Shown here piece after piece: positions 13,651-28,773 of a stretch of DNA of 64,000 bases. The position numbers and the translations under genes were made by a program. Location: the IMG/VR virus record IMGVR_UViG_3300030708_003106, positions 27,618 through 91,617 of that record, one strand, 5' to 3'. Positions within the stretch are counted from its first letter, which is position 1, and each line of letters opens with the position of its first letter. Under the pieces are notes generated by a model, which was given only the letters and a program-made list of their open reading frames with translations, did not search any database and was not told the origin of the DNA. The stretch is from a virus (lineage: Duplodnaviria > Caudoviricetes).

Positions 13651-13681
13651 TTCTGAAGCCTCCAAAGTGTCCTAGTTATAT
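13651..13681 (+). repeat. 31-bp island repeat, copy 1
   Basis: ttCTGAAGCCtccAAAgtGTcctagttatat. Confidence 0.9.
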
Positions 13682-13696
13682 CAGGGACACTTTTTG

Positions 13697-13795
13697 ATGT
13701 CAACTACTGAAAAATTAATTTTCATTGGATCATTTTTATGGATGATGCAATGGGGAACCCGTGTGACTTTGCTTGCGATCAATGCTCTCTCTTGA
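13697..13795 (+). CDS. Small hydrophobic peptide (32 aa, MSTTEKLIFIGSFLWMMQW...)
   Basis: Hand-translated; first ORF after repeat copy 1. Confidence 0.45.
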   Translation: MSTTEKLIFIGSFLWMMQWGTRVTLLAINALS

Positions 13796-14249
13796 ATACT
13801 CAGGATACAACTATAGCAAAAATCGTTGCGAAAGTATAGTTCAGTGGTTTGTAGATAAGTATCTGCCACGACACAAACTAGAAATTGTTGTACATCATCG
13901 CGGATTAGTTCGTGAAGGTGTATATGGTTGGTGTACTGTCCTTGATTGTGATTGGAGACCAAGAGCATTTGAAATCGAACTACACAATCAGATGAATATT
14001 GATGATTACACCAGCACCCTCTTACACGAACTCTGGCACGTTTATCAACATGTCAAGGGTAATCTGAAGGATAAGGGTGAAAAACGCTTCTGGAAGGGCA
14101 TAGACCACTCTGATACGGACTATTCTAATCAACCATGGGAACTTGAAGCAAGAGAAATGGAAAGGAAACTTTATTATTGCTATTTGGGTCTTGGACCCGA
14201 ATCTTTTGGTCATGGCACACCATTTCCCAATCGCTTGACAGCATCCTAA
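13782..14249 (+). CDS. Zincin-like metallopeptidase
   Basis: LLHELWHVYQ (HExxH) plus downstream PWELEA third-ligand motif. Confidence 0.75.
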   Translation: MLSLEYSGYNYSKNRCESIVQWFVDKYLPRHKLEIVVHHRGLVREGVYGWCTVLDCDWRPRAFEIELHNQMNIDDYTSTLLHELWHVYQHVKGNLKDKGEKRFWKGIDHSDTDYSNQPWELEAREMERKLYYCYLGLGPESFGHGTPFPNRLTAS

Positions 14250-14263
14250 AAACCCACTAGAAT
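14235..14263 (+). promoter_or_regulatory. Sigma70-type promoter
   Basis: TTGACA-N17-TAGAAT. Confidence 0.8.
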
Positions 14264-14287
14264 ACCTTTGTCGAGGTTAATCAAACT

Positions 14288-14491
14288 ATGACTTCTATTA
14301 AAACTGATTTTATTTGTGTAAAACCTAGGTCCTCTAAGGCAAAAAATAGGTTTGCAAATTTGATGAATAACCTCCACTCTTGTCGTATTGAGAAACGTAA
14401 AGATGGTAAATTATTCCTTGCTTCTATCAGTGGTAAATACTTTTTTTGGATGAATGAATCATCTGACGACCACTGGGAGGTTATTAAATGA
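14288..14491 (+). CDS. Hypothetical protein
   Basis: 67 aa, follows promoter, ATGA overlap with next ORF. Confidence 0.7.
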   Translation: MTSIKTDFICVKPRSSKAKNRFANLMNNLHSCRIEKRKDGKLFLASISGKYFFWMNESSDDHWEVIK

Positions 14492-14685
14492 AAGATCAGA
14501 ACAGCATCGAAGACACTGAAACTAAACAAGATAAATGGAATCGAGGTCTTGACATTTTTATTGAAAGTGTCTTAGAGCCAGATTCTGATTTGAGAGCGTG
14601 TGCTCATAATCAAAGATGCTATCATGAATTGATGGATGTTCGTCAAGATGTTTTGGATTATCTCAAAACTAAAAGATGGAACTAA
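14488..14685 (+). CDS. Hypothetical protein
   Basis: 65 aa, GGAGG RBS, coupled overlap. Confidence 0.7.
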   Translation: MKDQNSIEDTETKQDKWNRGLDIFIESVLEPDSDLRACAHNQRCYHELMDVRQDVLDYLKTKRWN

Positions 14686-14796
14686 AGAATCCTACTATCC
14701 CTATATTAATGTTTTTGGGTGTAATTTTTTGCACCCTTTGTGTTATTGTAGCAGGATACTTCCATGGGAACATGCACCTTATCACCACACTTAAAA

Positions 14797-15063
14797 ATGC
14801 TGCCGCTTCTTAACATTTTTCTTGCTGTAACTTTATGGGTTCAGGTTCCTCAATGGAATGATGACTGGAGTAACTGTGCCGTAGATGTTCCCGATACATC
14901 TTGCCATTGGTATATTGTTCAGGCAGATAATACTTTTGGTGAAGGATTTGATTGGGAGACTGCACCATGGTATAGTATTGAAGGTCTGCAAGATATTGCA
15001 GATTTGCATGATCAAGTCCTTTCTGAAGGCAATCAGTACACTGTAGAATCTCTTCAAAAATGA
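14797..15063 (+). CDS. Hypothetical protein with signal peptide
   Basis: MLPLLNIFLAVTLWVQ start; ATGA overlap with next ORF. Confidence 0.6.
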   Translation: MLPLLNIFLAVTLWVQVPQWNDDWSNCAVDVPDTSCHWYIVQADNTFGEGFDWETAPWYSIEGLQDIADLHDQVLSEGNQYTVESLQK

Positions 15064-15218
15064 ACCTCACTCTCCAAGAAGTAGACCACCTTATCAAAGC
15101 ACTAGAAACAATGTCATCTTATGATATTGCCCGTGCTAGAGAAGCAGTTGTGAATGGTGTGTCAGATCACCCTGAATTGATTCAAAAACTAAAAGATTAT
15201 CGTCTTCGTCTCACTTGA
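15060..15218 (+). CDS. Hypothetical protein (52 aa)
   Basis: Hand-translated; fills the gap exactly. Confidence 0.6.
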   Translation: MNLTLQEVDHLIKALETMSSYDIARAREAVVNGVSDHPELIQKLKDYRLRLT

Positions 15219-15219
15219 C

Positions 15220-15681
15220 ATGAAAGAATTTGATTATGAACTTGATTACAAATCACTTGACTTCACAGATGCAGAAACTCGCAAACTTTATCGTATTGGA
15301 AGGGGAGAACAAGGGGTTCTATTGGTACGCCCTTATACAAACGATATTTGTGCTCATTGGAGATTTGTAGATGAAGAAACGTCTATTAAATCTTCTCATA
15401 AAATATACGAAATGTTCTGTGAATATAAACAACGGAAAGATTTCATTGGAATGGACATGGCAAGAAAATTCCTTGAGATGGGATTTACCCGTGCAAGACG
15501 GTATGCCAATCACTCTTCGGGACGCAAATATGCAAAAGACAGGAGTATATTACCCATTGAGTCCGATTGCCTCACGTCTGAGAAATCAAGATCAGCAAAA
15601 GTATTCAAGGAAGTAAGAGATAAAGCTGCATATGATTCGGAATATGTTACAATGAGAAAAGAATGGAGATCTAAGGAATAG
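15220..15681 (+). CDS. DUF4385-like protein
   Basis: YRIGRGEQGVLLVRPY and MDMARKFLEMGFTRARRYANH motifs. Confidence 0.75.
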   Translation: MKEFDYELDYKSLDFTDAETRKLYRIGRGEQGVLLVRPYTNDICAHWRFVDEETSIKSSHKIYEMFCEYKQRKDFIGMDMARKFLEMGFTRARRYANHSSGRKYAKDRSILPIESDCLTSEKSRSAKVFKEVRDKAAYDSEYVTMRKEWRSKE

Positions 15682-15683
15682 TC

Positions 15684-15899
15684 ATGACTCAACTAATTGA
15701 TCCATCTGATCCACGTTATTTTACAAAGACTTCTGAGGGTCTATACGATAGGCATCATTATAAAGTTATATCTAAAGAAGGTGATACTGTTGTAGTTGAC
15801 AACTGGCAAGATGCCTTTCTCATATGGTGGAATAAAAAAGATTTTCTTTCTCATGTGGAGGTTTTAGATCCACCAAAAGGAGGAAAAGGATTTGCCTGA
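15684..15899 (+). CDS. Hypothetical protein
   Basis: 71 aa in a tightly packed run. Confidence 0.65.
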   Translation: MTQLIDPSDPRYFTKTSEGLYDRHHYKVISKEGDTVVVDNWQDAFLIWWNKKDFLSHVEVLDPPKGGKGFA

Positions 15900-16200
15900 C
15901 ATTAAATATCATGATGCTTTTCCATGGAGGTTAGTGAATGGTGACACAATATGCCATTTTGAGTGCAGAGAACACTTGCAGAAATACTTAGATAGATATA
16001 AACTGAAACCTAGAAACTGTAGCATTACACATAAAGATGGAAAACCCTTTGAATCCCGTGAAAAACACAAGAGAAACGTGGAGTCGTCAACATCAAAGAA
16101 AAATAACGGAAGTTCAAGTGCAGTTCGCAAACGAAAATCCAGCGTGGATTCCACTCGAAACACTTCTAGCAATTCAAAACGTAAGAAAAATGGAAAGTAG
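15892..16200 (+). CDS. Hypothetical basic protein
   Basis: 102 aa, TTG start after AAGGA, Lys/Ser-rich tail. Confidence 0.55.
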   Translation: MPDIKYHDAFPWRLVNGDTICHFECREHLQKYLDRYKLKPRNCSITHKDGKPFESREKHKRNVESSTSKKNNGSSSAVRKRKSSVDSTRNTSSNSKRKKNGK

Positions 16201-16202
16201 TC

Positions 16203-16385
16203 ATGTATGAAGAGCTAAATTGTTTTGAGGAAGCACTTAAACATTTTGGAACTAGAGTTGAAATCATCTGTGCTATGGAATATTCCAAAAGATTGTCTTC
16301 CGAAGATGCATATCAAATGATCAAGGAAGAACTTAAGGAGGTTAAAAAATGCAGGAAAAAATTCAATCAGAAAGAGAATTGTTGA
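16203..16385 (+). CDS. Hypothetical protein
   Basis: 60 aa in a tightly packed run. Confidence 0.65.
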   Translation: MYEELNCFEEALKHFGTRVEIICAMEYSKRLSSEDAYQMIKEELKEVKKCRKKFNQKENC

Positions 16386-16500
16386 CTTCTCTTGAATGGT
16401 ATGATCTTTGGTTACATGAACCAGATGATCGACCTCTTGCAGAAATTTGGAGAGAAATGGATGAAATTGAATCTCTCACCCCATTGCCACCTAAAGAACA

Positions 16501-16932
16501 ATGAAAACTAAAGCACTTTTACTTTCAACTCTATTATTCTTGCCTCTACCTGCATTTGCTGGCGGTCCAGTTTTTAGGAGAGGTAATCATAATCATGGAC
16601 AAACGAATGTCTATGAAGAATGCTTTAGACATGTAGAGAAATATACTCCAGGACACTACAATAGTCGGGGTCAATATGTTCGTGGGCAAGTAAGAGTTAC
16701 GAGAGAAAGTGTTCCTTGTGGATATGCTCCTAGGAGAAATTATCATGTCCCCAGTCACTATCAACGTAATGAACCTATAGACAATAATGATTGCTCAGGT
16801 GGTACAGCTGTGGGTGCTTTGTTAGGTGGTGGACTTGCAGGATTTGGATCTAGAGGTAAAGATCGCTGGTGGGCGATTCCTGCTGGAGTTGTTGGTGGTG
16901 CCATGGTGGGATGTCAGATTGATGGTGGTTGA
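16501..16932 (+). CDS. Exported protein with glycine-zipper 2TM domain
   Basis: Signal peptide (LPLPAFA); GTAVGALLGGGLAG...GVVGGAMVG. Confidence 0.75.
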   Translation: MKTKALLLSTLLFLPLPAFAGGPVFRRGNHNHGQTNVYEECFRHVEKYTPGHYNSRGQYVRGQVRVTRESVPCGYAPRRNYHVPSHYQRNEPIDNNDCSGGTAVGALLGGGLAGFGSRGKDRWWAIPAGVVGGAMVGCQIDGG

Positions 16933-16933
16933 G

Positions 16934-16964
16934 AACTGAAGCCTGCAAAGTGTCCCTGTAGTGT
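16934..16964 (+). repeat. 31-bp island repeat, copy 2
   Basis: aaCTGAAGCCtgcAAAgtGTccctgtagtgt. Confidence 0.9.
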
Positions 16965-16981
16965 AAGCACCACTCAAACAC

Positions 16982-17416
16982 ATGGGAACCCGCTCTCGCA
17001 TCGGTATTCAACTCAAAGACGGCAGTATTCTGAGTTCTTATCATCACTGGGATGGATATCCTGAGTGGTTGGGTCGCATCCTCACCACACATTACAACTC
17101 CCGCGAACAAGCAGCGGAACTGATTGATGGTGGTGACATGTCATGTGCATGGACAAAAGATCGCTGGACTGGTAAACAACTTTCTGCTTATGTGACTGAG
17201 CAGAAAGAAGCAGAAGAGTATGGTCCTCAGTATTATTCTGGACGCGGTGAAGATTGCCCTCCTCGTCTTGATGACAACATTGAGAAATTCCTTACAGATG
17301 GTGAAGAATATGGTTACATCTTTGAAAATGGTGAATGGAAGTGCTATGATACTAAAGACTGGTCCGATACATATAAGGAGCAGATTTCCATTCCTGAAGG
17401 AGCATTGGCAGTATGA
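16982..17416 (+). CDS. Conserved phage hypothetical protein
   Basis: MGTRSRIG...YHHWDGYPEWLG motif. Confidence 0.75.
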   Translation: MGTRSRIGIQLKDGSILSSYHHWDGYPEWLGRILTTHYNSREQAAELIDGGDMSCAWTKDRWTGKQLSAYVTEQKEAEEYGPQYYSGRGEDCPPRLDDNIEKFLTDGEEYGYIFENGEWKCYDTKDWSDTYKEQISIPEGALAV

Positions 17417-17604
17417 TTGATAGAGGTTTTCTGACAGAAATGTCTCATGATGATAAAGAACGTCTGTCAGAAGACTGTGAGGATTATCTTTTACATAGGA
17501 ACATCCCTCTTTATTCTGATTCGTATGATAATATCATCATACATGCAATTAAAGAGGGATATCAATTACAACGTTTTGATCGCTTCGTAAAAAAACCACA
17601 ATGA
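17413..17604 (+). CDS. Hypothetical protein
   Basis: 63 aa, ATGA overlaps on both sides. Confidence 0.65.
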   Translation: MIDRGFLTEMSHDDKERLSEDCEDYLLHRNIPLYSDSYDNIIIHAIKEGYQLQRFDRFVKKPQ

Positions 17605-17720
17605 CTGAAAAAGAACTCAAGCAAATGGAAATCGTTGCAGAAGAATTTTGGGCAGAGGTTGAATCCGAAGCGGAACGACTTGAAGTCACGGTTGATTACT
17701 ATCTTGCTGAATTTTACTGA
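17601..17720 (+). CDS. Small acidic protein (39 aa)
   Basis: Hand-translated MTEKELKQME...YYLAEFY; overlap-coupled both sides. Confidence 0.6.
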   Translation: MTEKELKQMEIVAEEFWAEVESEAERLEVTVDYYLAEFY

Positions 17721-17920
17721 TGGAAGAAGAAATCAAACCGAAAAGAATCAAAGATGAGAAATTTCTGCTACTAGCAGCAATCAATCAAGTAGAAAACATT
17801 ATCAACCTGACAGAGGAAAATGAATACAAACAATTCATTTATATGCACCTCAATTCAGTTTATTATGAACTAAAGCGCCAGTTGACTAATCTCACAGACC
17901 AAAGTAAAATTAAGGAGTAA
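17720..17920 (+). CDS. Hypothetical protein
   Basis: 66 aa, TGATG coupling. Confidence 0.65.
   Translation: MEEEIKPKRIKDEKFLLLAAINQVENIINLTEENEYKQFIYMHLNSVYYELKRQLTNLTDQSKIKE
17882..17910 (+). promoter_or_regulatory. Sigma70-type promoter
   Basis: TTGACT-N17-TAAAAT. Confidence 0.6.
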
Positions 17921-17931
17921 ACTAACCGAGG

Positions 17932-18174
17932 ATGATGACTCAAAAGTATTTCTACATTGTTGACCACTTTGTTCCTTTTCCTTCTAGTGAATATGGTGGT
18001 GTTTGGAATGTGATTGCTGAAAGTGACGAAGATTGTTTTAATCTTATCACCGATAGTGATGATGGATTTAATCAACAGTATTATGGAAACCTTCGTGAAA
18101 ACATTCTAAAGTCTCGCACTTATGCCTTGGCAGAAGATGTAGAATCTACTATTGTTGAGGAATTTACTACATGA
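17932..18174 (+). CDS. Hypothetical protein
   Basis: 80 aa. Confidence 0.7.
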   Translation: MMTQKYFYIVDHFVPFPSSEYGGVWNVIAESDEDCFNLITDSDDGFNQQYYGNLRENILKSRTYALAEDVESTIVEEFTT

Positions 18175-18404
18175 AACCTGACATGGTTCTAAGTTGGAAA
18201 CAACATCTTCGGGATGGTAATGTATGGAGGGTGAATGTAGAACTCCCTATGCAAGATGTTCCTGGAGGTGATGTAACATTCTACAATGTAGATGTATATG
18301 TAGTGTCACCAACTCAAGAACTGGCGCAATATATTGTGTCTACAATGTATTCTGAATATCAATCTATTTCTGTTGATGATGAACCAGTTAGAATTGCCCC
18401 CTGA
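18171..18404 (+). CDS. Hypothetical protein
   Basis: 77 aa, GAGG RBS, ATGA overlap. Confidence 0.65.
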   Translation: MKPDMVLSWKQHLRDGNVWRVNVELPMQDVPGGDVTFYNVDVYVVSPTQELAQYIVSTMYSEYQSISVDDEPVRIAP

Positions 18405-18684
18405 TTTTCCTCATGAACCACCTGAAAACTACACTTACGAAGTTAAAGAATTCCGACGCAACATTTTATCTATTTGGTGTTGCAATCATGCTGAATTCTC
18501 TTACAACGGCGGTGCTGTTTCAAAAACTATCTGGGGGTTCTACAATGTCAAACAGCGTACCTACATTGCTCCCATCAATTCAAAAAAACCTGGAAAAGTA
18601 GTAGATATTTCTAATACTCGTCCCTATACTGCGATGCAACTCAACTTGAATCCTTTAATGCAATGTCTTATGTCCCCCGATTAG
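18334..18684 (+). CDS. Hypothetical protein (true start probably ~18376-18379)
   Basis: ORF in a packed run; FPHEPPENY...APINSKKPG. Confidence 0.65.
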   Translation: MCLQCILNINLFLLMMNQLELPPDFPHEPPENYTYEVKEFRRNILSIWCCNHAEFSYNGGAVSKTIWGFYNVKQRTYIAPINSKKPGKVVDISNTRPYTAMQLNLNPLMQCLMSPD

Positions 18685-18954: not shown

Positions 18955-18985
18955 AACTGAAGCCCCTAAACTGTTTTATTATTGT
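18955..18985 (+). repeat. 31-bp island repeat, copy 3
   Basis: aaCTGAAGCCcctAAActGTtttattattgt. Confidence 0.85.
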
Positions 18986-18998: not shown

Positions 18999-19133
18999 AT
19001 GGACTGGTACGACGACATTCAAGTTGAAGAACTTCAAAACTTTGATCACATTGAAGAAGATCTCGAAGATTTGATTGAAGACAATCAAAATTTCAACATG
19101 AAAGAATACCTCAACTCCAACATTGATTACTGA
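18999..19133 (+). CDS. Small highly acidic protein (44 aa)
   Basis: Hand-translated MDWYDDIQVEELQNF...NIDY. Confidence 0.6.
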   Translation: MDWYDDIQVEELQNFDHIEEDLEDLIEDNQNFNMKEYLNSNIDY

Positions 19134-19134
19134 A

Positions 19135-19356
19135 ATGAACTTCCCTACTCAAACTGTCAACGTTTTGCCTCACATGAATGAACTCCGAGAGACTTGGAGG
19201 CGTCAAGATTTTCGATTTACTAAAGAGCAACAAGAAGAATATGATATGCTAAAGCAAGCACGAGCAGAACGAGTTAGGTGGTTTTATGAAACTGGACGAG
19301 TTCAAGTTGGTCCCAAAGTGACAAAAGAAAAGGAAATTGAATCTGAAGACAGTTGA
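19135..19356 (+). CDS. Hypothetical protein
   Basis: ATG 1 nt after the previous stop. Confidence 0.65.
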   Translation: MNFPTQTVNVLPHMNELRETWRRQDFRFTKEQQEEYDMLKQARAERVRWFYETGRVQVGPKVTKEKEIESEDS

Positions 19357-19411
19357 GATACTGTCCATAACCACTTGACTTAACGTTCATTATCTCCTAT
19401 TATACTAAATA
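19348..19411 (+). promoter_or_regulatory. Composite promoter: GACAGT-N6-ACTGTC palindrome, sigma70-type TTGACT-N17-TATTAT, and late-type CTAAATA
   Basis: Palindrome 19348-19365; -35 at 19375; -10 at 19398; CTAAATA at 19405. Confidence 0.6.
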
Positions 19412-19435
19412 ATAGGAGATTTTTTCCTGTCTAAA

Positions 19436-19942
19436 ATGAAAACCTTTGCTGAATTTGTTGCAGAAGCATATGATAAGGATGTCATGGGATCTTCCCAAAT
19501 CCGTAAGCAAGGAGAGGGTGGAAGAGTTGGTGCTAATAGAAAGAAAACAGAACCAGAAAAGCGTAGAATGAAAGCAGCGGGTGGTGGAAAAATGGTCCCC
19601 GCAAAAGATTACAAACCCCGCAAAGATATTGGTTCTCAAAGGCAAAGATCTACAAGAGAGCAACAACCAACACAGGAAAGAGGATCTGCTGCATTATCAG
19701 CAAAAGAAGCACAACGCAAGGCATATAGAGAAAGAAAGGCAAGAGAATCGGGTGCAAAGACTAAATCTGCATCAGAACTTCTGTCTAAGAAATCTGCTAA
19801 GAAAGTAAATCCTAACTATAAACCACAAAAAGCATCTGGATATACTAGAACCGAGAGACAGAAACTTCAGAGAACTGGCGATAGAATTATTCGCGACATT
19901 CGTAAGGGTAAAGACAAACCAGCATCTGCATACGAAAACTAA
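19436..19942 (+). CDS. Basic protein with MKTFxEFxxEA N-terminus (candidate internal head protein)
   Basis: Lys/Arg-rich 168 aa; N-terminal motif typical of T4-like capsid-targeted proteins; late promoter. Confidence 0.65.
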   Translation: MKTFAEFVAEAYDKDVMGSSQIRKQGEGGRVGANRKKTEPEKRRMKAAGGGKMVPAKDYKPRKDIGSQRQRSTREQQPTQERGSAALSAKEAQRKAYRERKARESGAKTKSASELLSKKSAKKVNPNYKPQKASGYTRTERQKLQRTGDRIIRDIRKGKDKPASAYEN

Positions 19943-19972
19943 ACTGAAGCCCCTAAAGCGTCTCAGTAGTGT
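19942..19972 (+). repeat. 31-bp island repeat, copy 4
   Basis: aaCTGAAGCCcctAAAgcGTctcagtagtgt; overlaps the TAA stop. Confidence 0.9.
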
Positions 19973-19996
19973 CTGAGACCGCCTGCAAGACCTCTG

Positions 19997-20040
19997 AAAC
20001 AACCTCTAGGTATATTTGTACTGCTGAGGTTGTTTTTTAT
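19997..20040 (+). terminator. Terminator-like hairpin
   Basis: AAACAACCTC...GAGGTTGTTT followed by T-run. Confidence 0.55.
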
Positions 20041-20089: not shown

Positions 20090-20623
20090 ATGGGAGTTTC
20101 ACAACTTTCCGAAATCGTTGCTCTCGGTTTTGAAGAACTCATTGCTGAGGGTGACACAAGGGAAATTGGCAAGTTTCTTGCATTTCCAACCGAACGTATC
20201 ATCGCCCCGCAATGGTTGCGCGAAGAATGTGGAATCGAAAATGATAAATCTCCCGATGATCTTGATGGTCAGCAGGAAAAGTACGATAGACTTTCTTCAA
20301 AAGGTCTGCGTATTCAAGTTAAGTATCGTGGAGGAAATACTCTCCACATGGAACAAACTCGCCGCACTACTGGCAAAAATGCAAACAATGGTGCTAAGAA
20401 TGGGCAGGTTCGCTATGCAGTGAACTCGTTTGATGTTATACTGTTTATTATCCCCAAAGGTCACGAAGATATTTCAAAGTGGGAATATCTTGCTATTCCT
20501 AGTTGTGAACTTGAAGATAAAAATATGCCTGGATATTGTGTAGGTTCTGTTCCTGCTGCTGTCCGTAAAAAGTACACTGGTCGCGCAAAGGAGGTTCTGG
20601 TTGCTCTCAACAATGCTGAATGA
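20090..20623 (+). CDS. Putative PD-(D/E)xK-type endonuclease
   Basis: E...YD...IQVK motif; overlaps a DNA methyltransferase. Confidence 0.5.
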   Translation: MGVSQLSEIVALGFEELIAEGDTREIGKFLAFPTERIIAPQWLREECGIENDKSPDDLDGQQEKYDRLSSKGLRIQVKYRGGNTLHMEQTRRTTGKNANNGAKNGQVRYAVNSFDVILFIIPKGHEDISKWEYLAIPSCELEDKNMPGYCVGSVPAAVRKKYTGRAKEVLVALNNAE

Positions 20624-21560
20624 ATATACAATCGGTGACAGTAGAGAACTACTGAAAGAAGTTGATGCAAACTCGGTGGATCTAATTTATATTGATCCAC
20701 CATATTGCACTGGCAGAGACTTCTATCACTTTGATGATCGATTCAAATCGAGTGCAGATTATCGTGAATTGTTGATGCGTCCTTTATTGGAAGAATGTCA
20801 TCGTGTTCTGACTGATTGTGGCAACATTGTTGTGCATGTAGAACCTAAGATCTCTCATCATATTCGCATTGTCCTTGATGACGTATTTGGTGAGAATAGA
20901 TTTAAGAATGAGATTGCTTGGGTTTCTGGCGGCAACCACAAATCAAAAAAGCAACTGCAACGCAATCATGATACGATCATTGTTTATCAGAAAGGAAAAG
21001 AATCCATCTATAATGCAGAGCACAAAGAATATGATGAGGATACTGTAAGGAAGGCAAAGATCTGTCCAATTCGCAAAAAGAAATACAATACATCTGCACT
21101 TGTTAATCGTCAACCAAATGTTGTATCTCGCCCTAATTTGAGATATGAATGGAATGGTAATCATCTCCAGTGGCATGTATCAAAGGAGAGGATGCAGATG
21201 CTTCATGATGATAATCGATTAGAATATTCTCCTAACACAGGTATTCCTAGAGTCAAGAAGTATTTGGATGAAATGGATGGAATCCCTGTCAAAGATGTAT
21301 GGTCTGATGTAAAACAGATTCAGGGAAATGAGAAGTTAGATTATGCAACTCAAAAACCTGTTGCACTCTTAAATCGCATACTTCGCATGTTCAGTAACAA
21401 AAACTCTATTGTTCTTGATCCTTGTGCTGGATCTGGTACAGTAGGCAGAAGCGCCAGACAGACAGATAGAAATTACATTTTATTTGATCTTAACACTGAA
21501 GGCAAAAAACTATTTGAAGAATCAATTAAAAATCCATTGCTCGACGCAATGGTCAGTTAA
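20613..21560 (+). CDS. Beta-class N6A/N4C DNA methyltransferase
   Basis: DLIYIDPPY, YATQKPVALL, VLDPCAGSGT. Confidence 0.92.
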   Translation: MLNEYTIGDSRELLKEVDANSVDLIYIDPPYCTGRDFYHFDDRFKSSADYRELLMRPLLEECHRVLTDCGNIVVHVEPKISHHIRIVLDDVFGENRFKNEIAWVSGGNHKSKKQLQRNHDTIIVYQKGKESIYNAEHKEYDEDTVRKAKICPIRKKKYNTSALVNRQPNVVSRPNLRYEWNGNHLQWHVSKERMQMLHDDNRLEYSPNTGIPRVKKYLDEMDGIPVKDVWSDVKQIQGNEKLDYATQKPVALLNRILRMFSNKNSIVLDPCAGSGTVGRSARQTDRNYILFDLNTEGKKLFEESIKNPLLDAMVS

Positions 21561-21563: not shown

Positions 21564-21594
21564 AACTGAAGCCCCTAAAATGTCCTAGTAATAC
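21564..21594 (+). repeat. 31-bp island repeat, copy 5
   Basis: aaCTGAAGCCcctAAAatGTcctagtaatac. Confidence 0.9.
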
Positions 21595-21607: not shown

Positions 21608-22798
21608 ATGATTACACTTCGCCCACATCAGGAACGCATCACAAATCGTATGCGTGACTACAACAAAGGTCAGATTATTGTTCCTACTGGTGGTGGTAAA
21701 ACTCTCACCATGATTGTTGATACTCGGGATCGTCATGATTCTATCAACAATGGAACCACTACCGTTGTTGTTGCTCCGCGTATTCTGCTGGCAGAACAAC
21801 TGTGCAGCGAATTTATGGAGGTTATTGATACTGCTCACACACATGTAATGCATGTTCATAGTGGAGAAACTTCATATTTCTCTACAACAAAGGCAGAAAA
21901 GATCAATCTATTTGTAAATACCGCTAGAACTGCTGGTGAGAATGTAATTATCTTCACCACTTATCATTCTTTGCATCGTTTGCAGGAGGCAGATATTGAA
22001 GTCAATACGATCTACTTTGATGAAGCGCATAATTCTGTGCAGAGAAACTTTTTCCCTGCTACGGAATACTTTGCTGCTGATTCTGATCGTTGCTATTTCT
22101 TCACTGCTACTCCTAAACATTCTCTTACTGTTTCTAAACCTGGGATGAATGATTTTGCTGTTTATGGTCAGGTTCTGGCAAATGTTCCTGCTCCTGAACT
22201 AGTTGAAGGTGGTTACATTCTTCCTCCCAAAGTTGTAGTCAAGTCGCTTCCTTTGATCAAAGGTCGCAAAGTCATGTATGCTGAAGATGCTGATAATTTG
22301 ATCGAAACTATTGATGAGAACAACATCGACAAGACTTTGATTTGTGCTCGCACTACGAAGCAGATTGTGGGTCTTCTTTCTCAGTCTGATTTCTGTGCTG
22401 AACTTGCTCAGCGTGGATATTCTTGGATGACGATCACATCGAAGACTGGTGCAATCATTGATGGTAAGAAAGTCAATCGTGAGCAATTCTTTGAGACTCT
22501 GAACACTTGGGGCAAAGATCCTGAGAAGAAGTTTGTTGTCATTCACCACAGCATTTTGTCTGAAGGCATCAACGTGAGTGGACTTGAAGCAGTTATTTTC
22601 ATGCGTAACATGGATTATATCGGCATCAGTCAATCTATCGGTCGTGTGATTCGTTTGGGTGGCAAGTCTAAGACCTTTGGTCTAGTTTGCATCCCAACTT
22701 ATGATTCTGTTGGTATTTCTACTGCTCGCAAAGTTCAGGCAGTTGTTGATGTTGTATTCAACAAAGGTGAACCCGCTATTTCTGAGATTCGTCGATGA
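21608..22798 (+). CDS. SF2 DEAH helicase (type III restriction Res-like helicase domain)
   Basis: LRPHQ, PTGGGKT, FDEAH, TATP, LSEGIN, QSIGRVIR. Confidence 0.9.
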   Translation: MITLRPHQERITNRMRDYNKGQIIVPTGGGKTLTMIVDTRDRHDSINNGTTTVVVAPRILLAEQLCSEFMEVIDTAHTHVMHVHSGETSYFSTTKAEKINLFVNTARTAGENVIIFTTYHSLHRLQEADIEVNTIYFDEAHNSVQRNFFPATEYFAADSDRCYFFTATPKHSLTVSKPGMNDFAVYGQVLANVPAPELVEGGYILPPKVVVKSLPLIKGRKVMYAEDADNLIETIDENNIDKTLICARTTKQIVGLLSQSDFCAELAQRGYSWMTITSKTGAIIDGKKVNREQFFETLNTWGKDPEKKFVVIHHSILSEGINVSGLEAVIFMRNMDYIGISQSIGRVIRLGGKSKTFGLVCIPTYDSVGISTARKVQAVVDVVFNKGEPAISEIRR

Positions 22799-23037: not shown

Positions 23038-23068
23038 AACTGAAGCCCCTAAACTGTCCTAGTAGTAT
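23038..23068 (+). repeat. 31-bp island repeat, copy 6
   Basis: aaCTGAAGCCcctAAActGTcctagtagtAT(G). Confidence 0.95.
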
Positions 23069-23960: not shown

Positions 23961-23964
23961 TTAA

Positions 23965-23995
23965 AACTGAAGCCCCTAAACTGTCCTAGTTACAT
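23965..23995 (+). repeat. 31-bp island repeat, copy 7
   Basis: aaCTGAAGCCcctAAActGTcctagttacAT(G). Confidence 0.95.
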
Positions 23996-24383
23996 GAGCA
24001 CTGATTCCATGACCACTCAATCCTTCGCTGACTACGTTGCCACGCAAGATGCACGCAACACGATTCAACTTAACGTGCGTAAGTATACGCTGATGTTGTG
24101 TGATGCTCTGCTGGACAATTTCAAGTCCCGCAACAATCGCAAGGATAGTGGTTACAAATTCTACATTGAAGAAGGTCGCAAATATCATAAAATTATCATG
24201 GAAACTGGTGGAAACTCCCGCAGTGTTCATGCCTTTGTTGATAAGAAGACTGGTGATCTGTATAAAGCAGCATCATTCAAATCTCCTGCCAAAGGAGTAC
24301 GTTTCAACCTTTGCATCATCAGTGATCGTGAATGGTTGCTGGAAAATGCTGACTGGGCAGGTGGATACTTGTACGCTCGTTAA
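23994..24383 (+). CDS. Conserved phage hypothetical protein
   Basis: GRKYHKI...SVHAFVDKKTGDLYKAAS...PAKGVRFNL. Confidence 0.75.
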   Translation: MSTDSMTTQSFADYVATQDARNTIQLNVRKYTLMLCDALLDNFKSRNNRKDSGYKFYIEEGRKYHKIIMETGGNSRSVHAFVDKKTGDLYKAASFKSPAKGVRFNLCIISDREWLLENADWAGGYLYAR

Positions 24384-24387
24384 TTAA

Positions 24388-24418
24388 AACTGAAGCCTCC
24401 AAAGTGTCCCTATAGTAT
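24388..24418 (+). repeat. 31-bp island repeat, copy 8
   Basis: aaCTGAAGCCtccAAAgtGTccctatagtAT(G). Confidence 0.95.
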
Positions 24419-24596
24419 GAGCACAACTAAAATGACAATCACCGAACGCAATCAACAACTCTTCGATCTTCGTAAAAAACTTGATCAGAAGAAAATGGAG
24501 ATGGCATGGATTGAAACTCAAATCATGGCAGTTAATGCACAATATGATCGTGAGAATCGTGAAACCCCATTGTTCGATGAAATGTTCGGAGGTTGA
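24417..24596 (+). CDS. Small coiled-coil protein (59 aa)
   Basis: Hand-translated MSTTKMTITERNQQLFDLRKK...FDEMFGG. Confidence 0.65.
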   Translation: MSTTKMTITERNQQLFDLRKKLDQKKMEMAWIETQIMAVNAQYDRENRETPLFDEMFGG

Positions 24597-24599
24597 TTG

Positions 24600-24806
24600 A
24601 TGCAATTCCAAATTACTGAAATCGAATTAGATTTTGAAGATTCTCAAGGTGTTCTATCTCATAATGAACAAACTGAAATTGTTGATGATTTAGTTGGTCA
24701 CATCTGGGAAGCAGATGATGAAGATGATCTCATTGAAGAAATCACATGTGCATCAGGTTGGTGTGTCAAATCCATCGATTTTCGTTATGCTCTAAACGCA
24801 TCTTAA
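24600..24806 (+). CDS. Acidic hypothetical protein
   Basis: GGAGG RBS; WEADDEDDLIEEIT...GWCV. Confidence 0.7.
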   Translation: MQFQITEIELDFEDSQGVLSHNEQTEIVDDLVGHIWEADDEDDLIEEITCASGWCVKSIDFRYALNAS

Positions 24807-24807
24807 A

Positions 24808-24996
24808 ATGAAAACAACAACTGCAACTTATTCAATCACAGTTACAACTGATGAGGGTACACTATCATTTTTGAGGACAATGCCCACACGTCCAAAAACA
24901 TCTAAGGGCATTAAAGCACATAATACTAGATTGGAAAACTATGCCATGAAGCAGTATCCAAACTGGAAAGAAATCGACGTTAAACTATTGCCATGA
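24808..24996 (+). CDS. Hypothetical protein
   Basis: 62 aa. Confidence 0.65.
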   Translation: MKTTTATYSITVTTDEGTLSFLRTMPTRPKTSKGIKAHNTRLENYAMKQYPNWKEIDVKLLP

Positions 24997-25163
24997 GTAA
25001 CATCGAAGATGTAACAAACTCTCCCAAAGATTGGGAAGACTTTTGGTACAATTCCGAGTCAGATGGACAGGAATTTGAGAAACTTCCCCCATACCTTGAA
25101 GCAGTCTTAGGACTCTCAAAATACCCTGCTGATTGTAAACGCGAATCCCCACTTTCAGAATGA
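24993..25163 (+). CDS. Hypothetical protein (56 aa)
   Basis: Hand-translated; ATGA overlaps both sides. Confidence 0.6.
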   Translation: MSNIEDVTNSPKDWEDFWYNSESDGQEFEKLPPYLEAVLGLSKYPADCKRESPLSE

Positions 25164-25327
25164 TCACTAACAAAGCACAAATGCTCAACGTCATGTCAAA
25201 ATGTGACGGTGCAGATACACTCACCCGAGAGGAAAAGTTTCAAGTCTTTTGTAATGTTTGCGACAACATGTTGAAAGAAGGTAGAATTAGCAAAGCAAAT
25301 CACAAGCGTTGGACTAACATTTGGTAA
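25160..25327 (+). CDS. Hypothetical protein (55 aa)
   Basis: Hand-translated MITNKAQM...RWTNIW. Confidence 0.6.
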   Translation: MITNKAQMLNVMSKCDGADTLTREEKFQVFCNVCDNMLKEGRISKANHKRWTNIW

Positions 25328-25329
25328 TT

Positions 25330-25554
25330 ATGAAAGTTGATACAATAGGCAGGATTATTGGTTCAGTTCTTGTAATCGTTGCCTATTTTGTTATTTTACA
25401 CATTGATCTCACATTTGGGGTGACATTAAACTTCATTGGTGATGCAATTTCCATTCCATTCTTTATACGAACAAAGTCCTGGGATGTTGTCATTATGTTA
25501 GTTTTCTTATTGTGTATTTCTTCCAGTAAATTATTTGGGTTTGGTTTATCATGA
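25330..25554 (+). CDS. Small membrane protein
   Basis: About three hydrophobic segments. Confidence 0.65.
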   Translation: MKVDTIGRIIGSVLVIVAYFVILHIDLTFGVTLNFIGDAISIPFFIRTKSWDVVIMLVFLLCISSSKLFGFGLS

Positions 25555-25691
25555 AATGCGAAGTAAAGTTGTACGTTGCAGGAAAAGTTTTCGCTGAGGA
25601 AGTATATGCGAAAGATTATCAAGAGGCAAGGGAAGTTGCATTAGCACGCAATCCTAATGCAAAAGTAATAGGAGTGACAGCAAAGTTCTAA
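25551..25691 (+). CDS. Hypothetical protein (46 aa)
   Basis: Hand-translated MKCEVKLYVAGKVF...ALARNPNAKVIGVTAKF. Confidence 0.65.
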   Translation: MKCEVKLYVAGKVFAEEVYAKDYQEAREVALARNPNAKVIGVTAKF

Positions 25692-25699
25692 GGATTAGA

Positions 25700-25730
25700 A
25701 ACTGAAGCCTCCAAAGTGTCCTAGTAGTAT
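25700..25730 (+). repeat. 31-bp island repeat, copy 9
   Basis: aaCTGAAGCCtccAAAgtGTcctagtagtAT(G). Confidence 0.95.
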
Positions 25731-25944
25731 GAAGACCACTCAAATGCAAATCAGCACCGCTTTCACTGATGCTTTGGAGTCCATGTCTGGGTTCTTTTAT
25801 GAAATGAATCCTGATCTGGATATGTGCTACGATTATGTTTGCGAGATTGCAGAAATTGATTCTTTCGTTGACAATAAAGAAGCATGGGATATGTTCTATG
25901 AAGCATGGGAAAAGGTTGCTGAGGAGAACTTTATCGATGTCTGA
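25729..25944 (+). CDS. Acidic hypothetical protein
   Basis: 71 aa directly after the repeat. Confidence 0.7.
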   Translation: MKTTQMQISTAFTDALESMSGFFYEMNPDLDMCYDYVCEIAEIDSFVDNKEAWDMFYEAWEKVAEENFIDV

Positions 25945-26158
25945 TTCTATCAAAACTTATCCACTTTTTTCTGAACTTATGAGCATTACTAATCCTTACG
26001 TTGAAAATCTTGTCGAGATGGGATATGATCGAAAAGACGTAGAAACGGCGTCTACGATGTTTCAAAAGAAAACGTTTCCATATACAATTCACGGTCGCAC
26101 TTATCAGACCGAAGAAGAATATAATGAAGCGATTCACGAGTTTATGAATGGCATGTAA
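25937..26158 (+). CDS. Hypothetical protein
   Basis: GAGGAG RBS before ATG 25937. Confidence 0.6.
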   Translation: MSDSIKTYPLFSELMSITNPYVENLVEMGYDRKDVETASTMFQKKTFPYTIHGRTYQTEEEYNEAIHEFMNGM

Positions 26159-26172
26159 TTCAGAGGTTTAAT

Positions 26173-26203
26173 AACTGAAGCCCCTAAAGTGTCCCAGTAG
26201 TAT
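26173..26203 (+). repeat. 31-bp island repeat, copy 10
   Basis: aaCTGAAGCCcctAAAgtGTcccagtagtAT(G). Confidence 0.95.
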
Positions 26204-26375
26204 GAACAACACTCAAGAAACCAAATTCCTTCTCTATGGTCAATTCCATCGCGCAAATGGTTGGATTATGAACGACTGTTTGGGTTACATTAAGGCAACA
26301 GAACAAGAGGCAATCGATACATGTAAGCGCCTCAATCCTAACTTTGTCATTCAATCTATCACCATCGAAAAATGA
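26202..26375 (+). CDS. Hypothetical protein (57 aa)
   Basis: Hand-translated MNNTQETKFLLYGQF...; ATGA overlap with next ORF. Confidence 0.65.
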   Translation: MNNTQETKFLLYGQFHRANGWIMNDCLGYIKATEQEAIDTCKRLNPNFVIQSITIEK

Positions 26376-26656
26376 ACTACACTCTCTGGCATCTCCAACA
26401 ACGTGTCAACAAACTGATCGAACAACAAGGTGAAGATGCACATTGTGCGGCATGGATTTACACCAAGGAAGATTGTTTTTTGACTGATGATAATGGTGAG
26501 CAGGAATATCCATGTGATGAACATCCTGAACTTGCTGAACGTATCTTCAATGATGTTGGAAACATTGATTACATCTACACTGTCATTCAAGAGTGTGTGG
26601 ATGAAGTAACTGAAGAACAATATATGGCATATCAACAAGAACTTTCAGAGGTTTAA
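26372..26656 (+). CDS. Acidic hypothetical protein
   Basis: 94 aa; stop 1 nt before repeat copy 11. Confidence 0.7.
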   Translation: MNYTLWHLQQRVNKLIEQQGEDAHCAAWIYTKEDCFLTDDNGEQEYPCDEHPELAERIFNDVGNIDYIYTVIQECVDEVTEEQYMAYQQELSEV

Positions 26657-26657
26657 T

Positions 26658-26688
26658 AACTGAAGCCTCCAAAGTGTTTCTATAGTAT
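26658..26688 (+). repeat. 31-bp island repeat, copy 11
   Basis: aaCTGAAGCCtccAAAgtGTttctatagtat. Confidence 0.9.
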
Positions 26689-26717
26689 AGGCACCGATTC
26701 ATTTTTCTTTTCTTCAC

Positions 26718-26990
26718 ATGCAAGTCACTAATTCTGCTGTCATTGTTGATTACTTCCCCGAGGCATTTATTGCTGAGTCTTGTGAGAAGAAAGGTGTGAA
26801 AGTTGTTGTCAAACGTTTCATCCGCCGCGTTAAGTTTCGTGCTACTGGTCAAAAATCTTATAGCACAGTTCTTGGTATTGAAGCAAAATATGATTGGCAA
26901 GCGCGTATTGCTAAAGGTGCAGAAGTGACTGACTTTAACACTGAAAAAATGCCTCGCTCTGAGTTCATGCCTCTTGCATGTGTGGGGTGA
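26718..26990 (+). CDS. Hypothetical protein
   Basis: 90 aa. Confidence 0.7.
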   Translation: MQVTNSAVIVDYFPEAFIAESCEKKGVKVVVKRFIRRVKFRATGQKSYSTVLGIEAKYDWQARIAKGAEVTDFNTEKMPRSEFMPLACVG

Positions 26991-26993
26991 TTT

Positions 26994-27179
26994 ATGTCAC
27001 TGATCAAACTTTATCTTCACAACAAAATGATGGACCGACTTGAAATGTTGACTCAACGTGAACAACTTATGGAGGACATTGATTGTATCATTGAATCAAA
27101 CTTTGGAGAGGTTGAATATAAAGATGATGTAATTCGTCAACTGTGTGATGCAGTCTGCAAAAACTTTCCAACCGACTAA
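26994..27179 (+). CDS. Hypothetical protein
   Basis: 61 aa (start may be further downstream). Confidence 0.6.
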   Translation: MSLIKLYLHNKMMDRLEMLTQREQLMEDIDCIIESNFGEVEYKDDVIRQLCDAVCKNFPTD

Positions 27180-27415
27180 TGTCTTTCGTTTCATTTTCCA
27201 CCGATCCAAACATCATGAACCAAGAGCAACTTAACAGACTTAAAGAGAACTATGCCAACCTCATTGTTGATGGGATGGATATGGATACTCTCGTTCAATT
27301 CGCACTTGATAGTCTCATGAATGATATGGAAAAATGGGATGAAGTAGATGTTAAAGAAGAAGTTCTTTATTTGTATGATGATGAAACTTGGAAAGATCTT
27401 CAAGAGTCAGTGTAA
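27179..27415 (+). CDS. Acidic hypothetical protein
   Basis: 78 aa. Confidence 0.65.
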   Translation: MSFVSFSTDPNIMNQEQLNRLKENYANLIVDGMDMDTLVQFALDSLMNDMEKWDEVDVKEEVLYLYDDETWKDLQESV

Positions 27416-27489
27416 CTTACCGAGGTTTTCCGAGTAGCGCAGCGTTCCGGATTTTTTGATCATAAGTATCAATCAACCTCAGTAATACT

Positions 27490-27520
27490 AACTGAAGCCT
27501 GTAAAGTGTCCCTATAGTGT
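27490..27520 (+). repeat. 31-bp island repeat, copy 12
   Basis: aaCTGAAGCCtgtAAAgtGTccctatagtgt. Confidence 0.9.
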
Positions 27521-27549
27521 AAGGACACACAATCCCAACACTTTTCCAA

Positions 27550-27897
27550 ATGCGTAAGATCGAATCCCAAATGTGCCAAGCAGTTCAGTCTAACAAGAAC
27601 TGGAGTTCTGGTAACACTACGGTTACGATTGATGAGGAAACTAATACTTCCTCTGTTTATCTTCACGGCAATCTGATTGCTACTGTGACAGATAATGACA
27701 TGACCATTTATGATGGTGGTTGGCAAAGTAACACCACTAAGTCGCGATTGAACGCTCTGTGTGATACTTTCTGTGTTGATGGTGAAGGTGTTTTCCAGGA
27801 GAATTTCGCCTGGTATGTGAGGAAGTTTGTAGGTGCAATTAACGGACAATCTAAGTTCGTCATCGAAACTTTTTCCAACGGTTACATCTTTGCCTGA
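27550..27897 (+). CDS. Conserved phage hypothetical protein
   Basis: MRKIE...VYLHGNLIA...GGWQSNTTKSRLNAL. Confidence 0.75.
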   Translation: MRKIESQMCQAVQSNKNWSSGNTTVTIDEETNTSSVYLHGNLIATVTDNDMTIYDGGWQSNTTKSRLNALCDTFCVDGEGVFQENFAWYVRKFVGAINGQSKFVIETFSNGYIFA

Positions 27898-28019
27898 GTC
27901 TTAACTTACATCTAGGCAGTACAGAATTGGGAGACTGATTCACAACGTAAGACCTAGTTTAACCAAGTGCTGAGTAACACTATAAACTGCTCACATTTCA
28001 CTCTAATTTACATCAACTC

Positions 28020-28166
28020 ATGTCTAAAGAAGTTCTCATCGGTATGCTGAAAATTGCTCAGAACGGTGATCAAATGCTTCAAATTCTTGACAGCATTACT
28101 GACACTGAAAAGGAGAGTATTTCCTCTGATGCAGTAGACTTCAGCGGTCAACCTGTCAACTTCTGA
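28020..28166 (+). CDS. Hypothetical protein (48 aa)
   Basis: Hand-translated MSKEVLIGML...; followed by a terminator. Confidence 0.55.
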   Translation: MSKEVLIGMLKIAQNGDQMLQILDSITDTEKESISSDAVDFSGQPVNF

Positions 28167-28169
28167 TAA

Positions 28170-28201
28170 TAAGAAAGGGGCGCTAAAAATGCCCCTTTTT
28201 T
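28170..28201. terminator. Intrinsic terminator, probably bidirectional
   Basis: AAGAAAGGGGCG-loop-TGCCCCTTTTTT; A-rich left flank and T-run on the right. Confidence 0.8.
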
Positions 28202-28381
28202 GCTATTATACATAAAGATTACCCTTTTTTTATATTAAAAATGTATTAAAAAATGTATTTACGTTGTTTGTATCGTGTTTAACATTGTTGGAAATGGAGT
28301 TACTTAGCAGTGTCTTCGTAGTTACTCTGGGGCGTATTTGTAGTGATTTTAATGCTCTCAGACGTTGTGATCTAAGCGAGC

Positions 28382-28410
28382 AGTCTATCACGAACGCGCA
28401 GAAATGTCAA
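28382..28410 (-). promoter_or_regulatory. Minus-strand sigma70-type promoter
   Basis: Reverse complement reads TTGACA-N17-(TGa)TAGACT. Confidence 0.65.
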
Positions 28411-28485
28411 CCGGGCGGAGATAAGTTTTACCAGGGATTGACAACACAAAACTATCAGACTTGCTAATAAATACTGAGAGGATTA

Positions 28486-28514
28486 TTGACAGTTCCTCTC
28501 TGTTATTCTATACT
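28486..28514 (+). promoter_or_regulatory. Sigma70-type promoter with -35 inside an inverted repeat
   Basis: TTGACA-N17-TATACT; GAGAGGA/TCCTCTC flank the -35. Confidence 0.8.
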
Positions 28515-28543
28515 AGTAAAGTATCACTCAGGGAGTCTCACAA

Positions 28544-28717
28544 ATGCCGACAGTCTATCACCAGTCTCAAAAGAGTAAGTATCGCATCACTCTGGAAATT
28601 GAAGCATTAGCAGACTTCGACCCTCATCAGATTAACTGGGAGAAGTTGTTCAAATTGGAAGGCAATGAGTCTTGTGATGCGTATATCGAAGACCTGTCAA
28701 ATCCTGGTCGTTGGTGA
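28544..28717 (+). CDS. Hypothetical protein (57 aa)
   Basis: Hand-translated MPTVYHQSQKSKYRITLEIE...; GGGAG RBS. Confidence 0.65.
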   Translation: MPTVYHQSQKSKYRITLEIEALADFDPHQINWEKLFKLEGNESCDAYIEDLSNPGRW

Positions 28718-28742
28718 TAGATTGTCAGTGGTGGGTGATAGT

Positions 28743-28773
28743 AACTGAAGCCTGTAAAGTGTCTCAGTAGTAT
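28743..28773 (+). repeat. 31-bp island repeat, copy 13
   Basis: aaCTGAAGCCtgtAAAgtGTctcagtagtAT(G). Confidence 0.95.

Follow-up and report, generated by a model that had tools for sequence, protein, structure and literature searches.

A repeated two-part element in the early-type gene block of a T4-like cyanomyovirus: probable class-specific promoters with a lineage-private box

The gene block and its repeats

The stretch of DNA analysed here, referred to as the window, comprises 64,000 nt (positions 27,618 to 91,617) of the 91,617-bp IMG/VR record IMGVR_UViG_3300030708_003106, which represents 43% of a genome. It belongs to a T4-like cyanomyovirus (Kyanoviridae) whose closest isolates are S-SM2, SynMITS9220M01 and Bellamy. 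The subject of this study is a 31-bp sequence repeated along a block of small same-strand genes that also includes genes for a helicase, a DUF6267 protein, a DUF7717 protein and Kyano_Gp96. In S-SM2, SynMITS9220M01, Bellamy and Syn9 this block is likewise flanked by the tail-fibre genes and baseplate gp25. An initial annotation of the window had called it an accessory island, a name that does not suit a region conserved at the same place in these phages. Work by Doron and co-workers from 2016 is said to place the early-gene block of Syn9 at this position and to have described a non-host-like regulatory element of its early genes.

The pattern CTGAAGCC-N3-AAA-N2-GT has 13 matches in the window, all on the + strand, against none in 100 shuffles, and no further exact copy exists on either strand of the whole 91,617-bp record. 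Within the window, CTGAAGCC alone occurs 13 times forward and 0 times in reverse. Once a second conserved block downstream is included, the fuller consensus of the repeat reads AACTGAAGCC-yyy-AAAGTGT-CCyAG-TAGTAT-GAnCAC. The initial annotation had reported these 13 copies in one orientation and without indels, with the pattern invariant in all of them and no full copy in the structural regions, and its description proved accurate. It had also noticed that the variants of N3 (TCC, CCT, TGC and TGT) cluster by position: CCT is found in copies 3-7, to which copy 10 has to be added, and TGT in copies 12-13. Because N3 varies beside an invariant 8-mer, the upstream part of the repeat, hereafter the box, appears to be kept by position-specific selection and not by blanket gene conversion.

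The copies divide the block into units of 0.42-3.3 kb (0.4-3.3 kb in the initial annotation), each of which contains 1-12 genes and has the repeat at its 5′ end. The table of open reading frames (ORFs) confirmed two further features that had been noted before. Eight copies (16934, 18955, 19942, 21564, 23038, 23965, 24388 and 26658) begin 0-5 nt after the upstream stop codon, and in six copies an ATG that opens an ORF is placed 29 nt after the start of the repeat (23067, 23994, 24417, 25729, 26202 and 28772).

Copy 1 (13651..13681) is the first of the block and directly follows a structural gene, which means that early expression must begin there. It heads an ORF for 32 amino acids (13697-13795), and its counterparts in S-SM2 and SynMITS9220M01 precede that gene as well. 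The sole decayed copy in the record, CTGAAACCTAGAAACTGT (CTGAAACC-TAG-AAACTGT), occupies positions 16001..16031 (about 16003) of the + strand, upstream of the ORF 16037-16210. Copy 2 (16934..16964) precedes the gene 16982-17416, whose Bellamy ortholog is preceded by the Syn9-type element described below. Copy 3 (18955..18985) has an atypical AT-rich downstream half, TTTTATTATTGT, which is kept in SynMITS9220M01, and heads the genes 18999-19942, including that of a basic protein. Copy 4 (19942..19972) has a long leader and is the ortholog of the putative helicase promoter of S-SM2, leader sequence included. The helicase gene of the window itself (21608-22798) is preceded by copy 5 (21564..21594). 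In copy 6 (23038..23068) the built-in ATG, at 23067, is where the DUF6267 gene (g28, MKN...) truly starts, and copy 7 (23965..23995) precedes the DUF7717 gene (23994-24383). These are followed by copy 8 (24388..24418), copy 9 (25700..25730) and copy 10 (26173..26203), where the built-in ATG is the only start available to the ORF 26202-26375. Copy 11 (26658..26688) comes next, copy 12 (27490..27520) precedes the Kyano_Gp96 gene (27550-27897), and copy 13 (28743..28773) ends the array.

Some features of the array and its surroundings were recorded in passing. A 24-nt stretch, TTCAGAGGTTTAATAACTGAAGCC, is identical at 26159-26182 and 26644-26667 (copies 10 and 11) and extends into the 3′-terminal parts of two different genes upstream, which hints at a local duplication or conversion. 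The hexamer CTGAAG is an AcuI/Eco57I site; the idea that it matters as a restriction site was dropped, as it is not avoided in the window (39 forward and 27 reverse occurrences against about 14 expected per strand). A weak match to the putative metallopeptidase family DUF6782 (E = 0.004) was obtained for the second gene of the block (13782-14249), whose S-SM2 homolog is annotated PF06114 (ImmA/IrrE-like). The leader of copy 4 contains a hairpin with a 9-bp stem followed by T's (about 19990-20030). Between copy 4 and the helicase, at 20090-21560, there are a gene for a 177-amino-acid protein of unknown function and an N6/N4 DNA methyltransferase gene, after which comes the extra repeat, copy 5.

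The repeat family in related cyanophages

Comparison with relatives divided the repeat into two parts. The syntenic stretches of S-SM2 and SynMITS9220M01 contain 11 copies each, with a common downstream half, AAAG(T/C)GTCCCTATAGT(A/G)TGAGCAC; the shared half of the window family is AAAGTGTCCCTATAGTAT. The upstream boxes are AAGGGGGGTCG in S-SM2 and AATGTTACTCACC in SynMITS9220M01, both unlike the window box CTGAAGCC. In the complete genomes the core is confined to one block on the gene strand, with 10 matches at 42.7-57.1 kb in S-SM2 and 11 at 36.3-50.0 kb in SynMITS9220M01. An AT-rich variant, GTTAGTTACC-TCT-AAATTGA-nnTATTAATG, is present 13 times in P-TIM68 (NC_028955), in each case on the gene strand and within 47.1-56.1 kb, and the copies in these three genomes span 9-15 kb. 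The complete Bellamy genome has no window-type core, and Syn9 and P-TIM40 show no excess of it. The block is not always contiguous, since TACTCACC-box copies are split over two distant regions in S-B05 (MK799832; 31.7-40.4 kb on the - strand and 156.0-157.0 kb on the + strand) and in S-B43 (MN018232; 54.5-55.6 kb and 201.1-208.8 kb).

The family is therefore present in the cultured phages S-SM2, SynMITS9220M01, P-TIM68, S-B05 and S-B43, and marine viral contigs contain it in abundance. When IMG/VR was scanned with the shared half, at least 118 stretches matched, and at least 84 locus-strands carried three or more copies, with an upstream box that was uniform within each contig. Among the matches listed, the boxes of different contigs belong to about a dozen related types: ACTGAAGCC, ACTGAGCCA, ACTGAGGCT, ACTGGGCCC, CTGGGGCC, TTGGATCC, GGGGGAGCC, GGGGGGACG, GGGGGGTCG, TAGCTCACC, TTACTCACC and TTAGTAACC. 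Only 12 of 429 copies in these matches depart from the box of their own genome, and about 4 are truly of a foreign type. Single foreign-box copies in otherwise uniform arrays were seen at L082 3619, L110 7317, L024 7809 and L094 1398, for example one ACTGAAGCC among TTAGTTACC; they may have been left by promoter-led units that passed recently from one lineage to another.

The copies themselves are in many cases orthologous. In the window, S-SM2 and SynMITS9220M01, a copy precedes the block genes g1, g13, g21, g28, g29, g30, g41 and g44 or their orthologs, and likewise the helicase gene (g26), although the S-SM2 copy at the helicase corresponds to window copy 4, leader included. Features of individual copies are kept at the orthologs: TTTTATTATTGTAAGCAC before g21, TAGTGT before g13 and g44, and the leader GTCTGAGAyCGCCTGCAA. 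Despite these kept features, the box of each orthologous copy is of its own genome's type. Judged by this alignment of copies, the box is apparently replaced wholesale between lineages at orthologous promoters, while the copies are inherited in place. Because the box is held in every genome yet differs between genomes, a co-evolving trans-acting reader would be the simplest cause.

Another repeated element takes the place of the window type in Syn9, Bellamy, S-SCSM2R and P-SSM2. It consists of a (A)GTGGCACA/AAGTGTCCAC-like box followed by a GC-rich hairpin and then by TGTATTCTATAAGAGTCAAAGG. This Syn9-type element precedes the orthologs of g13, g29 and g41 in Bellamy, and those of g13, g29, g41 and g44 when Bellamy and Syn9 are taken together; the early proteins of Bellamy are 53-90% identical to those of the window. 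Some Syn9-type elements open with AAAGTGTCCAC or GAAGTGTCCAC, as in S-SCSM2R (L242, 11625-11692 and 13987-14054) and in Syn9 (L132, 16304). These openings are nearly the window-type shared half, but they lie about 40 nt upstream of the -10-like part of the Syn9 type. From this resemblance, the two types of element may share a recognition module.

The built-in start codon and tests for known signals

Reading-frame statistics were obtained from 512 non-redundant copies among the matches listed. The built-in ATG was present in 239 of the 512, and in 223 of these 239 (93%) the frame that it opens extends for at least 30 codons, against about one third expected if the ATG were incidental. No other in-frame ATG lies within 10 codons in 103 of the 223 in-frame copies. 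The copies without a built-in ATG (273/512) have a start codon 15-115 nt downstream, in all three frames, the first one typically being 15-36 nt further on. The g28 protein bears on the same point. It begins MKN at the built-in ATG in three phages, whereas the P-TIM68 ortholog begins MKN at a separate ATG 19 nt downstream, the motif ATG being out of frame there. As the built-in ATG is translated, an RNA start upstream of it is favoured.

The repeats did not resemble any of the standard signals that were searched for. In a scan for sigma-70 -35/-10 promoters, 57 sites reached at least 9 of 12 matches and none of the 13 copies was among them. No terminator-like site adjoins any of the 13 copies, RNAalifold returned 0 pairs for the 13 copies, with no RNA or single-stranded DNA structure predicted, and the repeats have no Rfam match. 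Host-like sites on the gene strand were seen in intergenic positions: a perfect TTGACA-17-TATAAT at 29045-29073 and sites with 11 of 12 matches at 14235-14263, 28486-28514 and 29460-29488. With such canonical sigma-70-type sites in its intergenic gaps, the block seems to mix a private repeat class with host-like promoters.

Candidate readers of the box

Trees were built for 15 gene families of the block and the changes of box type were counted on each of them. The box type fitted the tree of g23 best, with 14 changes (minimum 11, shuffled mean 27.9), compared with 31 changes on the helicase tree (minimum 12) and 25 on the DUF6267 tree (minimum 11). The g23 gene (P0001; 19436..19942, + strand) encodes a very basic, mostly disordered protein of 168 amino acids and is the best, if imperfect, correlate of the private box. 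The protein has no Pfam, PHROG or Atlas name, and its family comprises 5373 clusters in metagenomes. Its AlphaFold model, of low confidence (predicted local distance difference test score 66, predicted template modelling score 0.22), is mostly disordered, with helices at 89-104 and 138-156.

The only isolates with g23 are S-SM2, SynMITS9220M01, P-TIM68, the S-B05 group and two single-cell viruses. It is the only block gene that is present in at least four motif-bearing phages and in 0 of 6 compared stretches of motif-free phages. No window-type repeat was found in seven comparison phages that lack g23, five of which were covered as whole records and two, DSL-LC02 and S-SRM01, over an 18-kb stretch. 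Classes of the C-terminal tail follow the box families, a QETxKY...TKxLxRV tail going with TTAG/TTAC/TAGC boxes (table 11/0/2/21). In a tree of the N-terminal part there are 3-4 independent contrasts per class, all in the same direction, which with box classes drawn post hoc corresponds to a sign test of p ≥ 0.125.

Another block gene, g17 (17932-18174), was considered as reader and rejected, as it is also found in S-SCSM2R and P-SSM2, which carry Syn9-type elements. The 80-nt gap upstream of g23 contains, at 19375-19420, a sigma-70-like TTGACT-17-TATTAT that overlaps a hairpin, itself with a 12-bp stem and followed by a T run. This site was discarded as a conserved feature of g23, since the gap measures only 13-26 nt in S-SM2, SynMITS9220M01 and P-TIM68.

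A promoter reading of the repeats

Taken together, these observations make it probable that the early-type gene block of this T4-like cyanomyovirus is transcribed from the repeats, which would be class-specific promoters with a specificity box private to the lineage. A promoter function is suggested by the orientation of the copies with the genes, their placement at the head of units, their confinement to one block and the presence of another promoter-like element at orthologous positions elsewhere. From each copy a short operon of 1-12 small genes would be transcribed. A large family of marine cyanomyoviruses has the downstream half (AAA-N2-GT ... TAGTAT, in many copies running into the start codon) in common, while the 8-10 bp box upstream, identical within a genome, is swapped wholesale between lineages and would be read by a lineage-specific trans-acting factor, not by the host sigma factor alone. 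The invariant AA-N2-GT could serve as a -10-like element, with A at -11 and T at -7, which would place the RNA start at a purine of TAGT and leave a leader of 3-5 nt. The register of the start site, and with it the production of near-leaderless mRNAs from window-type promoters, is put forward tentatively from the arrangement of the motif. TAAATT is the best hexamer in P-TIM68; it lies 2 nt nearer to the box, as does the ATG, and the 9-nt gap between them is kept.

Several points weigh against this reading or parts of it. Concerning the start register, AA-N2-GT does not have the usual T at -12, and the GT of S-B43-type copies is placed 1 nt upstream. TAGTAT, which matches TAnnnT, might be a genuine -10 should the first genes be translated from read-through RNA. 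The designation of the block as early-type draws on its synteny with the Syn9 block and on the 2016 work on that phage. Finally, S-B43 carries 8 TACTCACC-box copies genome-wide, six of which were read, all six with the shared half, and no homolog of g23, the best reader candidate, was found anywhere in its genome. For this reason g23 is regarded as a lead and not as the required reader; it is possible that it acts as a box-binding accessory.

A more specific version of the promoter reading can be proposed, but it is considerably more speculative and we would sooner doubt it than rely on it. The repeats would form a two-part promoter class in which the shared half, with a non-canonical -10-like element, starts near-leaderless mRNAs, and the private 8-10 bp box is read by a fast-evolving factor that is encoded by the phage or delivered by the virion. 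Each lineage would then have an early transcription code of its own, exchangeable as a whole, as between the window type and the Syn9 type in phages whose early proteins are 80-90% identical, and the basic protein encoded at 19436-19942 would be an accessory that binds the box.

Alternative explanations

The initial annotation had proposed a promoter-bearing cassette array whose modules are gained, lost or reordered by recombination at the repeat. The promoter part of that proposal agrees with the position, orientation, one-block confinement and positional orthology of the copies; the recombination part is weak. The window was compared at the protein level with 96 motif-bearing loci, counts that are pseudo-replicated by kinship. 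Adjacent gene pairs were broken in 402 of 472 cases (85%) when a repeat lay between them, and the roughly twofold excess over pairs without a repeat (odds ratio 2.1) speaks for cassettes; yet 462 of 630 repeat-free junctions (73%) were broken too. Among 12 relatives with the same box the figures were 44/57 and 54/86 (odds ratio 2.0, p = 0.10). Some novel junctions fall exactly at a repeat, as in L099, where 25835-26158 is joined through a repeat to 27550-27897, and in the comparison with S-SM2, where the two-gene insert at 20090-21560 ends at the extra copy 5; the approximately 4 heterotypic copies also suggest that promoter-led units cross lineages. Against this, L086, at 94% identity the nearest relative among the matches listed, is collinear with the window over 8 copies, and it has two indels (24556-24576 and 29223/29240), neither of them at a repeat. 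Gene-order maps showed a conserved backbone in which genes 30-43 are reshuffled singly, without conservation of repeat-to-repeat units: where S-SM2 and SynMITS9220M01 have 29-34-36, for example, the window has 29, repeat, 30-36. Insertions are frequently bounded by a repeat on one side and by an ordinary gene border on the other. In metagenome contigs g39 adjoins g32 and g40 adjoins g31, with no repeat at the border. Contigs of related phages from runs X1-X3 (window positions 24588-26643) show variant gene orders at repeat-free borders, the end of 26202-26375 being followed by 24808 and that of 26372-26656 by about 24588. Orthologous copies keep their inherited places, the repeats have neither a stem-loop nor an attC-like fold, and a search for tyrosine recombinases (PF00589) in the 91.6-kb record, 43% of a genome, was as blank as the earlier inspection of the window for an integrase. 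Collinear relatives and breakpoints unrelated to the repeats, the outcome that the initial annotation would have counted against its own reading, are largely what was observed, with a mild residual enrichment at the repeats. The repeats are probably not mobile cassette sites, and the block is mosaic at nearly every gene border; an array of the promoter/stem-loop (PeSL) or integron kind, in which the repeats serve mainly for module gain, loss and reordering, is unlikely. The repeats may offer short stretches of homology for recombination, a role open to any 30-bp repeat of a recombination-proficient T4-like phage, and shuffling proceeds gene by gene, with the repeats as at most one of several favoured seams.

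Two other explanations keep a regulatory function but change the reader. The repeats could be ordinary host sigma-70-type promoters with TAGTAT as -10 and a box that has no reader and is kept uniform by gene conversion. TAGTAT and TAGTGT do fit TAnnnT, CTGAAG is located 17 bp upstream, and promoters of marine picocyanobacteria often have no clear -35. According to a review, cyanomyoviruses have no alt, mod, motA or asiA (PMC2984593), which makes an unmodified host polymerase the default assumption. However, if RNA started 6-8 nt beyond TAGTAT, the built-in ATG would be left out and genes would have no start codon on their own transcript, although this ATG is in frame in 93% of the copies that have it and is the true start of g28. 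Moreover, the copies fail the sigma-70 scan while canonical TTGACA-N17-TATAAT occurs in the same block, boxes such as GGGGGG are unable to serve as -35, and the variation of N3 beside the invariant box speaks against simple conversion, so that we consider host promoters quite improbable. Alternatively, the motif could act in a polycistronic early mRNA, where a phage RNA-binding protein would recognise it as a translation operator or a processing site, much as RegA does at T4 initiation regions. It fills the gap from the upstream stop (0-5 nt in eight copies) to the built-in start codon, the protein that correlates best with the box shares its strong basicity and disorder with many RNA binders, and regA is conserved in cyanomyoviruses (PMC2984593). 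Against it, 273 of the 512 copies have a downstream start in any frame, which leaves no fixed geometry to the start codon; no conserved RNA structure was found, and copy 1 follows late structural genes, where a promoter is needed. A role at the RNA level is accordingly very unlikely.

Comparison with known systems

Within cyanophages, the element of the Syn9 early genes resembles the window repeat in preceding small genes between the tail-fibre and baseplate genes and in being non-host-like. It has another sequence and a GC-rich hairpin, whereas the window type has no hairpin and possesses a lineage-private box and a built-in ATG. PeSL cassettes are known in the phage pairs RB49/phi1, PST/T4 and nt-1/KVP40 (PMC2839356, PMC4122927). 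Like the window repeats, they are repeated promoter-bearing intergenic motifs in hyperplastic regions of small ORFs, their consensus differs between phage pairs and some gene differences abut the motif. In contrast to the window repeats, they combine a terminator stem-loop with a near-consensus sigma-70 promoter; the window repeats have no stem-loop and no -35/-10 fit, and breakpoints are enriched about twofold at them. Since eight copies start 0-5 nt after the upstream stop, there is no room for a PeSL-like stem-loop. Integron arrays differ in that their cassettes are promoterless single genes, while the units of the window hold 1-12 genes with the repeat at the 5′ end; the record, which covers 43% of a genome, contains no IntI-type integrase (PF00589) and the repeats have no attC-like fold.

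The promoter reading finds its closest parallels in two phage systems, which are used here as working analogies for the private box. T4 middle promoters combine a MotA box at -30 with a -10 and depend on sigma appropriation by MotA/AsiA. They share with the window type a -10-like element and a phage-specific box that replaces the -35, and as the box stands in place of the -35, the analogy implies a phage-encoded reader. The window box differs in being closer to the presumed start and private to the lineage, and its class is apparently early and not middle; homologs of motA and asiA are not known in cyanomyoviruses (PMC2984593). The promoter/RNA polymerase pairs of the T7 family (T7, T3, SP6) resemble the window type in having many near-identical promoters per genome and a specificity segment that differs between related phages. 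In that family the segment co-evolves with its reader, and a CTATAG-like sequence lies next to the start, as in the window type, although TATAG is not conserved in the window-type family (CAGTAGT, CTAGTAGT). To our knowledge, no single-subunit RNA polymerase exists in T4-like cyanophages, and none was seen in the block of the window.

Biological significance

No description of the window motif was found in the literature searched. The contributions of the present analysis are the breakpoint count, the frame statistic over 512 copies together with the argument from the g28 ortholog, the catalogue of boxes, the comparison of orthologous copies and the g23 lead with its counterexample. For phage genomics in general, a breakpoint count is needed before the repeat-bounded 'cassettes' of hyperplastic regions are called mobile modules. 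This repeat family, present both in cultured phages and in marine contigs, offers a concrete handle on the mechanism by which T4-like cyanophages start their early programme. The private box predicts a matching reader, which could be fished with box oligonucleotides. If RNA does begin 3-5 nt ahead of the start codon, translation from near-leaderless mRNAs would be one of the main modes in the early genes of cyanophages.

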